IMG/VR virus record: IMGVR_UViG_3300025708_000007 | Coordinates: 1-64,000 of that record | Length of the DNA: 64,000 bases | Direction: 5' to 3' (one strand) | From: a virus | Lineage: Duplodnaviria; Caudoviricetes | Part shown: in pieces, positions 33,878 through 61,989 of the stretch | How the letters are laid out: each line of letters starts with the position of its first letter | How positions within the stretch are numbered: position 1 is the first letter of the stretch | Program-made: the position numbers and the translations under genes | The notes under the pieces: generated by a model | Told to the model about the DNA's origin: nothing | The model's input: only the letters and a program-made list of their open reading frames with translations | Database searches by the model: none

Positions 33878-33953
33878 GGTGAGCGTAGTTCAGTTGGCAG
33901 AACACCAGATTGTGGTTCTGGTTGTCGCTGGTTCGAATCCAGTCGTTCACCCA
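33878..33953 (+). tRNA. tRNA-His(GTG)
   Basis: cloverleaf; CCAGA-TTGTGGT-TCTGG; encoded G-1, C73. Confidence 0.92.
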
Positions 33954-34123
33954 AAAATATCGATGATTTTATCTATATTTTCAAAATATCGATGAATTTA
34001 TCGATAAAATGAAAATATCGCTTAATTACACGATAATTGTATTTATCACGTAAACAAGTGATAAATAAGTTCTTTGAATTAATGAAAAAATGGGATTTGA
34101 AAAATTTTCAAGTATTTATTTAC

Positions 34124-34531
34124 ATGAAATATCCTAAGATAATAAAACGTTGTCCTATTTGTGATAAAGAATTTGAAACAAAATCGGGACACCCCAAAGA
34201 AAAAACAGTTTGTTCACATTCTTGTGCAAACACATATTTTCGGTCTGGAACTTCAAATCCTAATTACAAAAATGATGATGAATTAACTGGTGTTGCGAAA
34301 TACATTAGAATTTGTTTTCGATATCATCCTAAAAAATGCGTCTGCTGCAATGAAACAAATATTGTGGAAGTGCATCATTATGATAATAATAAAGAAAATA
34401 ATTCACCCGAAAACTTAATACCTTTATGTCCAACACATCATCAATATTGGCACAGTAGATTTAGACATTTGATTAAAACAAAGATTGATAAATATATTGT
34501 GGAATTTAAAAAAAATTTTATCGGGGTGTAG
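34124..34531 (+). CDS. HNH homing endonuclease
   Basis: CPIC, CSHSC, CVCC...EVHHYD...NLIPLCPTHH; track start 34037, ATG 34124 preferred. Confidence 0.8.
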   Translation: MKYPKIIKRCPICDKEFETKSGHPKEKTVCSHSCANTYFRSGTSNPNYKNDDELTGVAKYIRICFRYHPKKCVCCNETNIVEVHHYDNNKENNSPENLIPLCPTHHQYWHSRFRHLIKTKIDKYIVEFKKNFIGV

Positions 34532-34756: not shown

Positions 34757-34849
34757 GGTGACAGATATAAAAAACTGCACGAGAAACAGACACGAGTGGG
34801 TTAAGAGTTGTTTTAATACCCGCAATGGTTGCCAGTACCTAATGTCACC
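34757..34849 (+). ncRNA. 93-nt structured element, copy 1
   Basis: 7-bp terminal stem GGTGACA/TGTCACC; core near-identical to 39727..39819. Confidence 0.7.
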
Positions 34850-34854
34850 CAAAT

Positions 34855-34937
34855 TGACCTCTGGCAGAATGGTTATTGCATCGGTCTTTGAAGCCGACAC
34901 CCTTTGTGGTTTACAGGTTCGAGTCCTGTGGGGTCAA
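34855..34937 (+). tRNA. tRNA-Gln(TTG) with long variable arm
   Basis: TCGGT-CTTTGAA-GCCGA; ~14-nt variable region. Confidence 0.75.
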
Positions 34938-35010
34938 CAAAATATATTTTTTTGCATATATTTTAATATGTTTGCATAAAATTATATTTATTTACATATA
35001 TTTGCATAAT

Positions 35011-35165
35011 TATTGTTACGTGACGAAGCGATTCGTAATTAAGCCTTTGACTGTAAACCTTCACAGGGGTTCGGTTGCTTTCAGGATATAGTTCACTGGT
35101 TATGTGGAAAGTAACACTGTGTTAAGTGATAACTTAATGAAAGTAAAGACAGTCCCGTAACAATA
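35011..35165 (+). ncRNA. candidate 155-nt multibranch ncRNA
   Basis: TATTGTTACG/CGTAACAATA closing stem with internal hairpins. Confidence 0.5.
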
Positions 35166-35168
35166 CAT

Positions 35169-35242
35169 TGACCCGTAGTGTAATTGGTTAACACGTCTCA
35201 CTTTGACTGAGAAGACTACAGGTTCGAGTCCTGTCGGGTCAA
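35169..35242 (+). tRNA. tRNA-Gln(TTG)
   Basis: TCTCA-CTTTGAC-TGAGA; T1:A72. Confidence 0.93.
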
Positions 35243-35712
35243 CTTTTTTTACGACAATGCGTTGGTAATGTTGCGTTACAGTTAGGACATAAAATTCTTA
35301 GATTTTCAATTCTATGGTCTGAATTATCACCATTAATATGGTCGAGAATTAAACTTATATGTTCACCGTTCCAATTTTCATTCTGACCACATTTTTCACA
35401 AATACGTTTTTTTAATCCTTCTTCATATAATCTATTCTTAATATTACCCAAATTTGTATAGGTTGAGCCAGACACTAAAATTTCGATTGTTGAAATTTTG
35501 CGAGAATTATTTAATTTGGTGTTTGTTCTCATATACCGTTCTACTTTTGATTCGAAATGTGAAATATCAATATCATATAATTTAATATATTTCTTTAGTG
35601 TAGGTCTCGAATTTCCTTTAATTCCCAATCCCAATTTTTGAAGTATTTCGGTATAATTTTTCGAGTTTTTTACAATAGGTTCAAAATTTTCTCGCAAATA
35701 TTTTGTTTTCAT
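35239..35712 (-). CDS. HNH homing endonuclease
   Basis: CEKC...LILDHINGDNSDHRIENLRILCPNC. Confidence 0.88.
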   Translation of the reverse strand: MKTKYLRENFEPIVKNSKNYTEILQKLGLGIKGNSRPTLKKYIKLYDIDISHFESKVERYMRTNTKLNNSRKISTIEILVSGSTYTNLGNIKNRLYEEGLKKRICEKCGQNENWNGEHISLILDHINGDNSDHRIENLRILCPNCNATLPTHCRKKS

Positions 35713-35777
35713 ATTTTATTTTTTTAACTTCGTGGTTTATTTTAAAATAAATAGTTAAAAATAAAAAAACAACAACG

Positions 35778-36179
35778 ATGAGTTACAATTTATTTCTTGA
35801 CGACTTCCGCATGCCAAAAGATGCTTTTGACTACATGCATTTACCAGTCTATATTCAAAAAGAATGGATTGTGGTTCGTAATTACCATGCATTTATTTCA
35901 TTAATTGAAGGAAAAGGAATTCCCGAAATTATATCTTTTGACCATGACCTTGCAGATGAACATTATGATTATCAGGAACATCTTGATGGTGATTATTATG
36001 ATATAATGACTGAAAAAACAGGATACCATTGCGCAAAATGGCTCATTGATTATTGTATTGATAACAATAAAGAACTTCCTGCAACGATTCTTATTCATTC
36101 GATGAATCCTGCTGGAAGTCTTAATATTAAATCTCTTTTCGATACCTATTATAAGTATCACGAAAAGGGTTTATTGTAA
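35778..36179 (+). CDS. cyclic-phosphate-processing receiver-like domain protein
   Basis: LFLDDFRMP, ISFDHDL, KTGYHCAKWL, IHSMNPAG pattern (family recalled, not searched). Confidence 0.65.
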   Translation: MSYNLFLDDFRMPKDAFDYMHLPVYIQKEWIVVRNYHAFISLIEGKGIPEIISFDHDLADEHYDYQEHLDGDYYDIMTEKTGYHCAKWLIDYCIDNNKELPATILIHSMNPAGSLNIKSLFDTYYKYHEKGLL

Positions 36180-37325
36180 TTATCTTCTGCCACCACTTGA
36201 ACTTCTACCTGCTGAACTGCTGGATGAAGAACTTCCCGAACTTCTACTTGCCCCGGACGAACCAGAACTGAAAGAAGAACTGTTTCTGCTTTGATTCGAA
36301 TAACTACTTGAACTTCTATTGTATGATTGTGGAGTACTTGATGAAGGACGTGAATAGCTGTTCGAACTTCTTGAAGTGGATGGTGTCGAATATGACGGTC
36401 TGCTACTATTTGTAGAAGGACGAGAATAAATCGGTTTATCCTGATTTGAAGGAGTAGTTGTGCGAGTTTGCGTTTGGGTACGTGTCTGAGTAGTTGACGA
36501 TGAACGAGTATATGTGCGATTTGGTGTTGTATTATTATAACTTGGTCTTGTACTCATACGTGGGTTTTCGTAAGAAGGAGTATATGTTCTTCTACTTTCA
36601 CTATATGTTGGCTTATTCTGCGGATTAGTGGCAACAGTACGTCTTTCTTGTGTTGCTGTAACAGTACGTGTTTGTGTCTGATTTTGAGCAACACTGATTC
36701 TTCTTGTTGGTTGACTAAGCGTCATTGTTGAAGGGCGTTCTCTACGACCATATTCAATATTGTTATAATACGGCTTTGATTGATTCCAACTATAATAATT
36801 GTAATTAATTGTTTGATATCTTGGTGTATACCAATACCTATATGGTTGATGCCAATACCAGTGTGAATAATATGGATACCCCCAACTATAATATGGATAA
36901 TACCAATCATAATAGAATGGGTCATACCATCCATAATTCCAACTCCAATACCATGAATCATAATAAAATGGTGAGTAATGATAACTATACCAAAAGCTAA
37001 AACTTCCGTGATGATACCTATTAATTAAATTTGCATAGTAATAATCATCGCTGTAATAATAATTGTTAACGATGGTTTTTTGTTGTTCCTTTTTAATTTC
37101 TCTTTTTTCTTGTCTTAAAAATTTTTGTTGCTGTTTGATAGTATCTAATTTAGCGTTATAATAGAGGTCATCAAACTCTGGTTTTTCTGCAACCTTCAAT
37201 GTGTCACCAAATTTTGCAGCTTCTTTAGCTTCCCAATACTTCTCGTAATCGGATTTTTCTCTAACTTGTGCAATTAATGCACCAGTTAAAAGTAATGCAA
37301 TTATTGTTAAGATTAATCTTTTCAT
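36180..37325 (-). CDS. secreted/envelope protein with Tyr/Trp-rich and Ser/Thr/Arg low-complexity regions
   Basis: signal peptide MKRLILTIIALLLTGALIAQ; YW-rich middle; S-rich tail. Confidence 0.75.
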   Translation of the reverse strand: MKRLILTIIALLLTGALIAQVREKSDYEKYWEAKEAAKFGDTLKVAEKPEFDDLYYNAKLDTIKQQQKFLRQEKREIKKEQQKTIVNNYYYSDDYYYANLINRYHHGSFSFWYSYHYSPFYYDSWYWSWNYGWYDPFYYDWYYPYYSWGYPYYSHWYWHQPYRYWYTPRYQTINYNYYSWNQSKPYYNNIEYGRRERPSTMTLSQPTRRISVAQNQTQTRTVTATQERRTVATNPQNKPTYSESRRTYTPSYENPRMSTRPSYNNTTPNRTYTRSSSTTQTRTQTQTRTTTPSNQDKPIYSRPSTNSSRPSYSTPSTSRSSNSYSRPSSSTPQSYNRSSSSYSNQSRNSSSFSSGSSGASRSSGSSSSSSSAGRSSSGGRR

Positions 37326-37407
37326 ATCTTGTGTGTTTAAATAAATAAAACAATTTTCGTGCCGGAATTATTAATATCTTTATGGTATTTATTATAAATA
37401 TTTGATT

Positions 37408-38121
37408 ATGAAAAATCGGGGTGGTAGACAAAGACTTTTTGAAGTTCTGGCAAAAGTAGACCCAACTTTCAAACCCAAAGCAGGTACTGGTGCAAAGCTA
37501 TATGTAAAGCCATCGGATGTGCCGTTACAAATCATTGATTGGGCAAAATCAATTGTTGGCGGTGGCTTTCAAAACAATATAACAATACAAAAATCAACAG
37601 GTGCTGTAAAACTTGGTATGCCTTGGCATGATGCTGATAGAGAAACACACCAATATTTTAAATTAATGGATAATGGTGCTGCTGAAATGGGAAATCCAGT
37701 ATCAAGGTCAGGCTGGTCAGAAGTAAATATGGGTGATAGTTATGGTGAAGTTCCAATACCGTCAGGTTATGTTTTAGCAACAGTTGGTACATATCCAAAA
37801 AGGCTTAGAATAGTAACAAACCCGGATGCGATGGATGTGCTTTCAAATAATGATGAAGCATTAAACAAACTTTCTGATGAAGCATTGGTTGCGTTACACC
37901 AAGCAAAATCATATAAATCGTTTGCCAGACAAAAATTTAATAATAGTGTTTATGAGGAATTATTATCATCTGGATTAATGAACAAACAAAGAGCAATAAC
38001 AATTGATGGAAGAAATTTCATTAGTTCTCCAGAAGCCATTAAAAAATTAAAAAACATTAAAGAAAAAGATGAAAAGGAAAATGGCAGATGGAGTGCGAAA
38101 TATTATATGCCAAGTATTTAA
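37408..38121 (+). CDS. hypothetical protein with RLFEVM-like leader
   Basis: MKNRGGRQRLFEVLAKVDPTFKPK; GGTATTTATT at 37384-37393. Confidence 0.75.
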   Translation: MKNRGGRQRLFEVLAKVDPTFKPKAGTGAKLYVKPSDVPLQIIDWAKSIVGGGFQNNITIQKSTGAVKLGMPWHDADRETHQYFKLMDNGAAEMGNPVSRSGWSEVNMGDSYGEVPIPSGYVLATVGTYPKRLRIVTNPDAMDVLSNNDEALNKLSDEALVALHQAKSYKSFARQKFNNSVYEELLSSGLMNKQRAITIDGRNFISSPEAIKKLKNIKEKDEKENGRWSAKYYMPSI

Positions 38122-38136
38122 TATAAAATAAATGTT

Positions 38137-39060
38137 ATGAAAAAAGATAGCAAACAAAGACTTTTCGAAGTTATGAGCAGACTTGATAAAACATTCAAGC
38201 CAAAATTGAATGAAATTTTTGGGGAAGAACCAGAAGAATTCGTCCCACACGGCACATATACTGTTTCGAATGCAGGTGGTTATGAAATTATGTTAAACGA
38301 TGCGGGTGATGCTGCCAAAGTACGTGATGCGTTTGGCTCAGACAACCCAAAAACTTCAGATTGGTTAGAAATAGAATACACGCCTGATAATGAAACTGGC
38401 GAAAGTGAACCAGTTATTGACCCAAATGGTTATAACATTCCTTTAAATCAGGTTATGAGATTACAAGAAGAAGCAAATGTTAATGAAGAACAAACCAGAC
38501 CATTATATGATATTGCTCAAGAAATCTATCAGGACTGGAGACCAGTTCATCCATATGCAAAACCATATCTTGAAGCAATGTCAACATTGAATTCAATAGA
38601 TGATAACTATATGATGGATTCAGGTAGAAGTATTGTTTCATATTTTCTTTCAAATGCAAGTCAATGGAAAGGTGAAACAGCAAAACGCATTAAAATTGAA
38701 TTGAAAAAAATGTTAGGAATGCGAGAAGGTAGTAGATTAAATGAAACTGGTGAATGGGCAGGTGATGAAGATGATATAGCATGGATAGATGCTCTCAAAT
38801 CTGAAGTACAAAAAATCGAATCAGAAACTGATGGAAAATTAAAATTGGTCGAAGTCAGGGGTTTCGATAAATATCAAGGACCTTACGCCATTGTTGATAT
38901 TGAAGGAAGAAAATACAAAATCTGGACAGTTGGTGGTGAATATGATAGCGATTTACTTTGGATTGAAAATTATCCCATTGACAATACTTCAAGTGAGGAT
39001 ATGAATGCTGGTTTTATGGGTACAACAAAAACAATTATTAATATGTTGAAACAGAACTGA
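38137..39060 (+). CDS. multidomain protein with RLFEVM leader
   Basis: MKKDSKQRLFEVMSRLDKTFKPKLNE; internal LQE/VNE/LNE junctions. Confidence 0.8.
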   Translation: MKKDSKQRLFEVMSRLDKTFKPKLNEIFGEEPEEFVPHGTYTVSNAGGYEIMLNDAGDAAKVRDAFGSDNPKTSDWLEIEYTPDNETGESEPVIDPNGYNIPLNQVMRLQEEANVNEEQTRPLYDIAQEIYQDWRPVHPYAKPYLEAMSTLNSIDDNYMMDSGRSIVSYFLSNASQWKGETAKRIKIELKKMLGMREGSRLNETGEWAGDEDDIAWIDALKSEVQKIESETDGKLKLVEVRGFDKYQGPYAIVDIEGRKYKIWTVGGEYDSDLLWIENYPIDNTSSEDMNAGFMGTTKTIINMLKQN

Positions 39061-39104
39061 TTGCAAAACTTGAAAAATTATTTTTAAAAATAATTGAAAA
39101 AAAG

Positions 39105-39135
39105 TTTGTTTATTTTGAAACATTTTTTATCTTTG
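39105..39135 (+). promoter_or_regulatory. Bacteroidota sigma-A-type promoter of tRNA operon 2
   Basis: TTTG-N19-TATCTTTG. Confidence 0.8.
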
Positions 39136-39200
39136 TATCGTATAATTGCAAAACAAATAGTATTTAAATAAAAAGTATTAACAATTAAAATTCAAAACGA

Positions 39201-39296
39201 ATGAAAAGAATGCTCGACATATCAGTAATGGCAGTAGCCTTGAACGCAGTCCTATTATGGGATGCAGTAGAGGATGCGCTATGCAAAGTCGGGTAA
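39201..39296 (+). CDS. attenuator leader peptide 2 (Val/Ala/Leu/Asp/Glu/Trp)
   Basis: MKRMLDISVMAVALNAVLLWDAVEDALCKVG; upstream of Asp/Glu/Val/Leu/Ala/Trp tRNAs. Confidence 0.8.
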   Translation: MKRMLDISVMAVALNAVLLWDAVEDALCKVG

Positions 39297-39333
39297 TTTG
39301 TATTCATATACAACCTCCTTTCTAAATGAAAAG

Positions 39334-39365
39334 ACCCGACTTCCCTACAAGCCGGGTTTTTTTTT
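39334..39365 (+). terminator. attenuator terminator 2
   Basis: ACCCGACTT-CCCTAC-AAGCCGGGT+T run; 5' arm perfectly complementary to AAGTCGGGT (39286-39294). Confidence 0.85.
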
Positions 39366-39375
39366 GAAAGGAGAA

Positions 39376-39393
39376 GTTCTTTGACATGCTGGA
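39376..39393 (+). promoter_or_regulatory. boxA-like antitermination site
   Basis: GTTCTTTGACATGCTGGA, identical at 61012-61029. Confidence 0.55.
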
Positions 39394-39398
39394 AATTT

Positions 39399-39474
39399 GG
39401 TGCTGGGGTCTGCTTGGCGTGGACGCATGACTGTCACTCATGATATCAGGAGAGTTCGAATCTCTTCAGCACCG
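39399..39474 (+). tRNA. tRNA-Asp(GTC)
   Basis: CATGA-CTGTCAC-TCATG; G73. Confidence 0.9.
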
Positions 39475-39479
39475 CATAC

Positions 39480-39597
39480 GGTCTTATAAATAATTACCCT
39501 GAGTAAATCGGGTAGCCGATGTACACGGTTTGGAACGATTCGGAAAGCAAGCATGCATTGCTCGATGAGGGGGGGTTCGAATCCCTGTAAGACCGCA
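39480..39597 (+). ncRNA. tRNA-like RNA (acceptor + T-arm, non-tRNA interior)
   Basis: GGTCTTA/TAAGACC stem, GGGTTCGAATCCC, interior hairpins. Confidence 0.55.
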
Positions 39598-39602
39598 ATT
39601 TC

Positions 39603-39672
39603 GAGGTCGTAGTTTAATGGTTAGAATGCCACCCTGTCACGATGGAGAAGGGGTTCGAATCCCACGGCTTCG
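39603..39672 (+). tRNA. tRNA-Asp(GTC), degenerate
   Basis: loop CTGTCAC; short, imperfect T-stem. Confidence 0.6.
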
Positions 39673-39726
39673 GCAAATTTTACTGTTAAAGCAGTAAAAA
39701 GTGCCATATATGATACTAAAGATAGT

Positions 39727-39819
39727 GATGACCGATGTAAAAAACTGCACGAGAAACAGACACGAGTGGGTTAAGAGTTGTTTTAATACCCGCAACGGTT
39801 GCCAGTACCCAAGGTCATC
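39727..39819 (+). ncRNA. 93-nt structured element, copy 2
   Basis: GATGACC/GGTCATC terminal stem with two compensatory changes relative to copy 1. Confidence 0.7.
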
Positions 39820-39824
39820 CAGAT

Positions 39825-39898
39825 GCTGCGTTCGGCAAGATGGTTAAGCCGTAAGACCTTCAATCTTACATGCATGGGTTCGAGTCCCATACGCAGTA
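39825..39898 (+). tRNA. tRNA-Glu(TTC)
   Basis: TAAGA-CCTTCAA-TCTTA. Confidence 0.88.
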
Positions 39899-40013
39899 CA
39901 AGTGAAATCGAAATGTCGTAAGATAGTAGTAGTTAAGTCTACCGATTTTTGTGGTTTTGAGCACGAGACGCTCATGTAATAGGGCATACACTCCCTTTCC
40001 ACCACTTACTTAT

Positions 40014-40087: not shown

Positions 40088-40165
40088 ATTGGTCGGCTCG
40101 TCTAATTGGTTAGGACATCACCCTTTCACGGTGAAGATTTACGGGTTCGAGTCCCATACGCAATA
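40088..40165 (+). pseudogene. tRNA-Glu(TTC) with disrupted acceptor stem
   Basis: TCACC-CTTTCAC-GGTGA intact; acceptor strands pair poorly. Confidence 0.6.
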
Positions 40166-61359: not shown

Positions 61360-61953
61360 ATGAAAACAAAAGATAGTGTAATTAAACTAAGACTTTCTGG
61401 AAAAAGTTATGGCGAAATAAGTAAAATGCTGAACATTTCTAAACCCACAGTATCCTACCATTGTATAAATGCCGGATTGAATGAACCAATTGATGGTCGT
61501 AAAATATTGAATGAGGCTGAGAAAATTGAACTTAATGAATATTATAAATCACATACTATTTTCGAAACAGCAGAAAAATTTAAGATATCAAGAACAACTG
61601 TTCTTGCAAACACTGAAAATAAGAGACTGGTATTGTGTGAAATTGAAAAAAGAAAAAGAAATTATGAAAAGGTAAAAAATAGGCGACAACGGCTTAAAGA
61701 GATGGGTGTTGAATATTTAGGTGGAAAATGTATGAAATGTGGGTATGATAAATGTATTGCTGCGTTAGAATTTCACCATAGAAACCCAGAAGAAAAAGAA
61801 TTTGGAATATCACGTTATCAAAATTTGAGTTGGTCAAGAATTATTGTTGAATTAGATAAATGTGATTTACTGTGTTCTAATTGTCATAAAGAATTACATT
61901 ATGAGGAACATTGGGATGTATCACCTCTGCCTGATAAGCAGTCGAAAGTGTAG
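61360..61953 (+). CDS. HTH + HNH homing endonuclease
   Basis: CMKCGYDKCIAALEFHHRNP...KCDLLCSNCHKELH. Confidence 0.88.
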   Translation: MKTKDSVIKLRLSGKSYGEISKMLNISKPTVSYHCINAGLNEPIDGRKILNEAEKIELNEYYKSHTIFETAEKFKISRTTVLANTENKRLVLCEIEKRKRNYEKVKNRRQRLKEMGVEYLGGKCMKCGYDKCIAALEFHHRNPEEKEFGISRYQNLSWSRIIVELDKCDLLCSNCHKELHYEEHWDVSPLPDKQSKV

Positions 61954-61989
61954 TTTGGTTGCACGTGGGTTCAAATCCCACCTTCCCAA
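61912..61989 (+). tRNA. tRNA-Ile(GAT)-like, D-arm missing
   Basis: CTGC-CTGATAA-GCAG; GTGGG-TTCAAAT-CCCAC; only 6-8 nt between acceptor and anticodon stem. Confidence 0.5.

Follow-up and report, generated by a model that had tools for sequence, protein, structure and literature searches.

The transfer RNA (tRNA) array of an uncultured, giant phage contains, at two separate places, a 93-nucleotide (nt) element that is a selected, strand-specific structured RNA and that, judging from its sequence and the searches described below, is a real and previously undescribed RNA family. The DNA analysed here (hereafter the window, 64,000 nt) is the first 64 kb of the IMG/VR record IMGVR_UViG_3300025708_000007, a record of 90,967 bp whose estimated completeness of 28% marks it as part of a jumbo-phage genome. 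The reading that we favour, and think reasonably likely to be correct, is that the element is a non-decoding small-RNA gene of ~93-95 nt that occupies tRNA slots in jumbo-phage arrays and specifies a tRNA-His-derived minihelix excised in the manner of a tRNA. Two 93-nt copies had been described in an original prediction made from the letters of the window, and both were located at exactly the positions given there, as follows:

34757-34849, + strand: copy 1, 93 nt, between tRNA-Gln(CUG) and the long-arm tRNA-Gln(UUG); covariance model score 121.9 bits
34850-34851, + strand: the CA that follows copy 1, after which a trailer AAU runs to 34854
39727-39819, + strand: copy 2, 93 nt, 5 nt upstream of tRNA-Glu(UUC); covariance model score 123.2 bits
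39820-39821, + strand: the CA that follows copy 2

There is no third copy in the whole 91-kb record. The terminal stems are as originally described: GGTGACA (34757-34763) faces TGTCACC (34843-34849) in copy 1 and GATGACC (39727-39733) faces GGTCATC (39813-39819) in copy 2, with CA after each. The copies differ at 7 of 93 positions (2, 7, 11, 70, 84, 87 and 92, numbered from the first nt of the element). The two compensatory stem pairs recognized earlier, 2-92 (G-C/A-U) and 7-87 (A-U/C-G), are present, and the roughly three interior differences counted then are positions 11, 70 and 84; a third compensatory pair, 11-84 (A-U/G-C), had been overlooked among them, so that six of the seven differences between the copies make up three compensatory pairs (2-92, 7-87 and 11-84). 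When 7 random substitutions were simulated, the probability of obtaining at least 2 double-changed, unbroken pairs in the 7-bp stem was P = 4e-5.

Pattern scans found a copy-2-type element in one related IMG/VR phage (G001, locus L004), nine more copies in metagenome contigs, and one more in a 5.9-kb contig (L026, CAYPJS010000146.1) that has been binned into the metagenome-assembled genome (MAG) of an "uncultured Anaerolinea sp." The last contig is plainly a phage tRNA-array fragment; its binning is either a mistake or a weak hint at the host. The copy-2 type is thus present in the window, in G001 and in 9 metagenome or MAG contigs, and the copy-1 variant occurs also at L023:7925-8019, in a contig that we count as the same phage lineage because it is 99.2% identical to the window. 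In total there are 13 copies with 8 distinct sequences (alignment A5), all from one jumbo-phage clade, and the distribution of the element is in this sense narrow.

The 8 distinct sequences were scored against a structure with three paired regions: P1 (1-7/87-93 plus 10-11/84-85), P2 (40-50 with 55-59 and 62-67) and P3 (71-73/81-83), which gives 23 pairs and 184 cells. Standard pairs are present in 184/184 cells (100%), and when, as a control, the partners are slid by 1-3 columns, pairing falls to 35-48%. Both partners have changed in five pairs (2-92, 11-84, 43-64, 44-63 and 7-87, the last of which has three pair types) and the pair 41-66 alternates between U·G and U-A; the covariation across homologues on which the original prediction had staked its case is thus seen. 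The G·U pairs (the invariant 49-56 together with 41-66) would be mismatches on the complementary strand, and the fold under selection is therefore that of the + strand transcript. The parts of the fold have the following positions:

39727-39737, + strand: 5' strand of P1 in copy 2, whose positions 1-7 pair with 87-93 (39813-39819)
39810-39811, + strand: positions 84-85 of copy 2, partners of 10-11 in the inner pairs of P1; no pair broken
34757-34767 with 34840-34849, + strand: P1 in copy 1
39738-39765, + strand: A/C-rich segment of 28 nt, positions 12-39, UAAAAAACUGCACGAGAAACAGACACGA; in copy 1, 34768-34795
39766-39793, + strand: P2 hairpin of 11 bp, positions 40-67; in copy 1, 34796-34823
39797-39809, + strand: P3, a predicted T-arm-like hairpin, positions 71-83, GGU/UGCCAGU/ACC; in copy 1, 34827-34839

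Within P1, G8 and A9 lie opposite A86 in an internal loop. The 28-nt A/C-rich segment contains CACGAG twice, is predicted to be unpaired and is invariant in 13/13 copies, although the search patterns force invariance at positions 19-40 (positions 12-18 were not forced). The only pairing option within positions 12-39 is a 3-bp CUG/CAG hairpin, which is invariant across the alignment. P2 corresponds to the GGGU...ACCC hairpin of the original prediction, here lengthened to 11 bp by the covariation among homologues; it has a 2-nt bulge at 60-61 and a 4-nt loop at 51-54, both of which vary freely, and the variable columns outside the pairs are those of this loop (51, 52), the bulge (61) and the linker (68-70). 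The GCAA/UUGC hairpin that had also been suggested is not borne out, as its closing pair 66-76 is broken in 4/8 sequences whereas 41-66 stays paired. The model also contains what is probably a 3-bp P3 hairpin with a 7-nt loop at 71-83, which together with the pairs 10-85 and 11-84 makes a split 5-bp stem on the same loop; a pseudoknot of 18-23 with 74-80 could be drawn on paper, but its bases are all invariant. The minimum free energy (MFE) z-scores of the element are unremarkable (-1.4 and -1.6).

When the Rfam search that had been envisaged was run, no known family overlapped either copy: the families of Rfam 15 (ribozymes, riboswitches and small RNAs) gave no overlap at the gathering thresholds or at E<=10. 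ARAGORN made no tRNA call on the element and the Rfam tRNA model (RF00005) had no match on it at E<=10 in a 6-kb search, in agreement with the earlier view that there is no anticodon loop. Because neither Rfam nor the tRNA finder matched it, we call the element a new RNA family. A blastn search of 50,697 phage records gave no match to it, and exact patterns for P2 and for the P3 region returned from IMG/VR either nothing or G001 alone. A covariance model of the element (R1) found nothing at E<=1 in the syntenic arrays of relatives with 70-78% protein identity (among them the complete 357-kb genome G006), nothing in 11 further phage arrays in which the same tRNA-Glu is present, and nothing in the T4 tRNA region (AF158101, 68000-75000). 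Two resemblances were considered and set aside. The pair of motifs GGGUUAAG...CCCGCAACG, which we take to resemble helix 37 of 16S ribosomal RNA, was dropped since its bases are replaced in L004 and L017. The motif ACGAGAAAC resembles the tag of a type III CRISPR RNA, but no hairpin precedes this tag and nothing like a matching repeat was found in the MAG to which L026 belongs, so the idea of a CRISPR-repeat mimic was rejected.

What kind of RNA this might be is suggested by its ends. The tRNA genes of the array have a common flank pattern in which T is at -1 in 29/37, G is at +1 in 26/37 and C comes after N73 in 35/37, usually as CAAA(A)T. The element reads agt/G...C/CAAAT (slashes mark its two ends) and fits this pattern only with C93 taken as N73 and paired to G1, a pair that is invariant in all copies; this fit points to the G-1:C73 arrangement that marks tRNA-His. 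The covarying end helix of 7-8 bp, the U at -1, the G at +1 and the CAAAU trailer together are those of a tRNA acceptor end in its usual gene context. Read in this putative register, G1:C93 would be G-1:C73, 2-8/86-92 would be the acceptor stem (with G·A at 7:66), 81-85 would be the 5-nt 3' strand of a T stem and 74-80 a 7-nt T loop, and a 59-nt insert would separate the two parts, 10-11 and 71-73, of the T-stem 5' strand; an acceptor helix of 8 bp would thus be stacked on the split 5-bp T-like stem. The original prediction had stated that there is no T-loop. A canonical T arm (5 bp, UUCRANY loop) is indeed absent, the loop UGCCAGU being closed by a 3-bp stem that reaches 5 bp only by way of 10-85 and 11-84, but GGU-UGCCAGU-ACC is a hairpin resembling a T arm, with a CAGUACC that recurs in a phage tRNA-His lineage.

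Two comparisons with tRNA-His genes are relevant to this register. The top five pairs of copy 1 are those of the window tRNA-His at 33879, and when 38 tRNAs are ranked by their match to the ends of the element this gene comes first for copy 1 and copy 2 alike, its lead being modest. The motif CAGTACC-N6/7-CACCCAAAT is common to the element and to a phage tRNA-His lineage that has an odd T loop, GUCAGUA. It would follow that the element descends from a tRNA-His gene of the clade in which the D and anticodon arms were replaced, their place being taken by the 28-nt A/C-rich strand and the 11-bp hairpin; we give this descent only about an even chance because the CAGTACC match was spotted post hoc and the interiors are dissimilar (the similarity of the element interior to tRNA-His is not significant). 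The odd-T-loop tRNA-His genes are at L046:4307-4383, L052:970-1046 (- strand), L063:12060-12136 (- strand), L065:5679-5755 and L069:10304-10380, have G-1:C73 and two acceptor-stem U·U mismatches (one in L046 and L065), and are missed by ARAGORN; the Rfam tRNA model gives the L046 gene 32.6 bits. They sit in tRNA arrays, adjoining Pro and Gln tRNAs in 3/5 contigs (L063, L065 and L069), and L063 carries the transfer-messenger RNA (tmRNA) tag of the element's clade.

If the favoured reading is right, the element would be co-transcribed with the array tRNAs, RNase P would cut 5' of G1 (after the U at -1), the 3' end would be trimmed at the CAAAU trailer that it shares with the tRNAs, with CCA possibly added, and the paired ends would keep the RNA stable. 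The terminal helix and the split stem and loop could then imitate the 13-layer acceptor/T minihelix of tRNA-His. In the two modes that seem likeliest, the RNA might occupy a reader of acceptor ends, be it histidyl-tRNA synthetase (HisRS) or a toxin or nuclease of the host directed at the 3' ends of tRNAs, or the invariant 28-nt strand with its two CACGAG motifs might be presented to a protein; that the RNA acts by its His-type end and/or its A/C-rich strand is a suggestion in which we have low confidence. The original prediction had proposed a functional RNA processed by the tRNA machinery, and the selected fold, the tRNA slots and the tRNA-like leader and trailer fit excision of this kind, as for rnaC and rnaD of T4; the Ro-type partner named with it has no support (below). 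The synthetase decoy named as another possibility can now be put more specifically and is plausible, in that G1:C93 followed by CA matches the HisRS identity mark G-1:C73, from which we infer HisRS as the candidate. HisRS is known to charge 13-bp minihelices and 8-bp microhelices that have G-1:C73 (PMC9976931). No phage-encoded HisRS gene was found. The complete relative G006 encodes a polyvalent protein of 1507 aa (L070:2463-6986, - strand) with ART-PolyVal, GNAT, CCA-adding nucleotidyltransferase and "Swiss Army Knife" RNA-repair HAD domains, and the CCA-adding and RNA-repair domains suggest that the clade invests in maintenance of tRNA 3' ends.

Several further observations weigh against this reading. 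The His-like register requires the G·A at 7:66 and a bulged A9, and to our knowledge a T stem with a 59-nt insert in it has no precedent. Neither P3 nor the 28-nt strand varies, so that they give no covariation signal for the T-like arm or for any tertiary contact. The homologues are all at least 90% identical and belong to one clade, and the copy-1 type is one lineage. Complete G006 has no element, which must accordingly be dispensable for the clade. Finally, a search of the 91-kb record for antisense targets gave best matches of 10-11-mers and RNAduplex energies no better than those of shuffled queries.

Other explanations have to be weighed against the location of the copies, for which these neighbouring features are needed:

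34037-34531, + strand: HNH homing-endonuclease open reading frame (ORF), 225 nt upstream of copy 1
34855-34938, + strand: long-variable-arm tRNA-Gln(UUG), directly 3' of copy 1 (ARAGORN)
39675-39726, + strand: conserved 52-nt spacer upstream of copy 2, with the palindrome ACTGTTAAAGCAGT and the motif AGTAAAAAGTG..ATATATGATACT
39825-39899, + strand: tRNA-Glu(UUC) with anticodon loop CCUUCAA, which follows every copy-2-type element

Copy 1 lies 3 nt after tRNA-Gln(CUG) and 5 nt before tRNA-Gln(UUG). This Gln slot is filled by the element in the window and in L023 and is empty in L014 and L026, where tRNA-Gln(UUG) follows tRNA-Gln(CUG) after 4 nt; the same slots in G001 and G006 are occupied by other, non-homologous structured fillers. 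Those of G006 are L009:12104-12231 and L009:8632-8730; the former is an RNA of 128 nt whose terminal stem is 12 bp long and whose MFE z-score is -3.0.

Could the element be a cis-acting structured spacer that has no role as a free RNA and that insulates the unusual tRNA downstream of it (the long-arm Gln-UUG, or Glu-UUC with its CCUUCAA loop), guides the folding and processing of that tRNA, or shields the 5' end of the Glu-operon transcript? A tRNA does follow every copy at a distance of 3-5 nt, tRNA-Glu travels with the spacer and the element as one conserved block, and fillers such as L009:12104-12231 in the G006 and G001 slots are structured without being homologous. An insulator, however, needs a fold and neither an invariant unpaired sequence of 28 nt nor tRNA-His-like ends, and the tRNAs that it would serve do without it: the same long-arm Gln tRNA is present without the element in L014 and L026 (4-nt gap), and tRNA-Glu with the same loop is present without it in many phages. 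We therefore think this explanation unlikely.

The second alternative is a selfish or hitch-hiking DNA cassette, spread from one tRNA slot to another and from phage to phage by recombination that homing endonucleases drive, in which the 7-bp ends are terminal inverted repeats. The arrays are mosaic. A 228-nt block composed of spacer, element and tRNA-Glu (window 39673-39900) is 91-97% identical in five contigs and ~90% identical in L017, while the other stretches in which those contigs match the window are shorter and, at 68-100% identity, mostly less similar; in L014 and L011 (G001) the neighbouring DNA is ~70-82% identical and the element 98% and 96% identical, respectively. Since the block is so much better conserved than its flanks, the cassette must move by recombination, and both the polymorphism of the Gln slot and the occurrence of the 34037-34531 HNH ORF only where copy 1 also occurs (the window and L023) are what such movement would leave. 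The difference between filled and empty Gln sites is GT + element + CA, and no target-site duplication is apparent when they are compared. Thus, inverted ends are present but the target-site duplication of a miniature inverted-repeat transposable element is not. Inverted repeats that are recognized as DNA need not covary, yet all of the stem changes are compensatory, the interior helix P2 covaries too, and the G·U pairs make the fold strand-specific. Mobility accounts for the spread of the cassette and not for the conservation of its fold, so the cassette explanation and the favoured small-RNA reading can hold together; as an account of the element by itself we regard it as very unlikely. The last alternative, a functionless decaying tRNA pseudogene or chance duplicated spacer, was already disfavoured and is hardly credible: degenerate tRNA-like stretches do occur in these arrays (for example the partial tRNA matches at 40100-40157 and 61912-61989) and the MFE z-scores given above are those of unremarkable sequence, but there are zero disruptive substitutions in 23 pairs x 8 sequences against at least 6 independent compensatory events, the simulated probability given above comes from the two window copies alone, and the element is 96-98% conserved where phage flanks are 70-80% identical.

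The rest of the array is of the following kind. From ~33.8 kb onward the window has 41 tRNA genes and a tmRNA, all on the + strand, with homing-endonuclease ORFs of the HNH and endonuclease VII types interspersed among the tRNAs. The HNH ORFs 34037-34531 and 35239-35712 flank the Pro-His-Gln tRNA block on its two sides, and in L016 and L020 the copy-2 block is preceded, at ~350 nt, by a homologue of the latter; the placement of the HNH ORFs fits endonuclease-driven shuffling of array cassettes. In the spacer, the AGTAAAAAGTG..ATATATGATACT motif has a single occurrence in the window. It accompanies an imperfect palindrome upstream of the Glu tRNA operon in the window, at L004:300-400 and in L034, and as a tandem pair in two relatives, and the palindrome and motif could be a promoter or operator. 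The tRNA-Glu(UUC) with the CCUUCAA loop, which has C in place of the expected U33, is found at window 39825-39899 and in 10 of the IMG/VR loci L033-L046, and the motif AGCC-N3-AGACCTTCAATCT retrieves such genes from many phage contigs.

Among known RNAs, the closest in kind are rnaC and rnaD of T4 (species 1 and 2 stable RNAs), which are annotated in the T4 tRNA cluster and have no assigned function (PMC9697503); the statement that this cluster holds stable non-tRNA species is therefore correct. Like the element, they are non-tRNA RNAs arranged head-to-tail with tRNAs, on the tRNA strand and beside a homing endonuclease (segB in T4), and in computed folds the ends of rnaC are likewise paired and it includes a T arm. 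Neither sequence nor model shows any similarity between them and the element (R1 finds nothing), and the architecture is different: rnaC is 139 nt long with a canonical GGUUCGAAUCC T arm, whereas the T-like arm of the element is split and non-canonical, its end is a G:C pair of the tRNA-His type, and its A/C-rich strand is invariant. The element is thus similar in kind and not homologous. Two other array elements resemble T4 rnaC. These tRNA "top-half" elements of ~110-120 nt, at window 39479-39598 (GGUCUUA/UAAGACC) and L011:8089-8198 (GGUCUUC/GAAGACC), have a 7-bp acceptor-like stem, the canonical GGUUCGAAUCC T arm and a large unrelated interior.

With tRNA-His and its minihelix and microhelix the element would share a terminal G:C followed by C-A, a stack of ~13 layers and a 7-nt loop; it differs from tRNA-His and the minihelix in the lack of a D or anticodon arm, in the G·A at 7:66, the bulged A and the 59-nt insert in the T stem. 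Plant-virus 3' tRNA-like structures (TLS; His-accepting in tobamoviruses), mascRNA and the tRNA-like domain of tmRNA are, like the element, non-decoding mimics of the acceptor/T half, and are handled by RNase P, the CCA-adding enzyme or synthetases (PMC9976931), but they are genome 3' ends, eukaryotic or larger RNAs, none is a phage-array cassette, and none gives an Rfam match on the element. Allo-tRNAs, whose acceptor/T branches are 8/4 or 9/3, are found in phage tRNA clusters, and tRNA-His forms are among them (PMC5389517). At ~90 nt they match the element in total length, and like it they have an extended acceptor helix, a T stem of 3 bp and, immediately ahead of the T arm, a long hairpin, but they keep D and anticodon arms, which the element's 28 nt between P1 and P2 cannot form. 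YrlA (RF02553) is similarly a small RNA with a long terminal stem and a tRNA-like module, and some YrlA genes are phage-borne (PMC4201824). It has no match on the element at E<=10, however, and no TROVE (Ro) gene was found in the fragments G000 and G001 or in complete G006; the Ro-type partner of the original prediction is therefore unsupported and the Ro/Y RNA reading was dropped.

A more general proposal is that jumbo phages place in their arrays a set of anticodon-less, tRNA-derived minihelix RNAs as decoys or sensors of acceptor ends. After RNase P cleavage and CCA addition the G-1:C73 end would either be charged with histidine or titrate a host factor acting on or reading tRNA 3' ends (a toxin that modifies or trims the CCA end, or HisRS), and the 28-nt strand would recruit a second partner; in this full form we think the proposal decidedly unlikely. 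The element is in any event a compact new example of a non-tRNA stable-RNA kind known since T4 species 1 and 2; its fold is well supported, and it has a clear division of labour among tRNA-His-like ends, an invariant unpaired strand and a freely varying hairpin tip, while the naturally filled and empty sites allow comparison. If it is only a processing aid, it would be a modest addition to the catalogues of RNA families. If it is true that minihelix RNAs are decoys in conflicts over tRNA ends, this would help explain why giant phages have large, oddly composed tRNA arrays.

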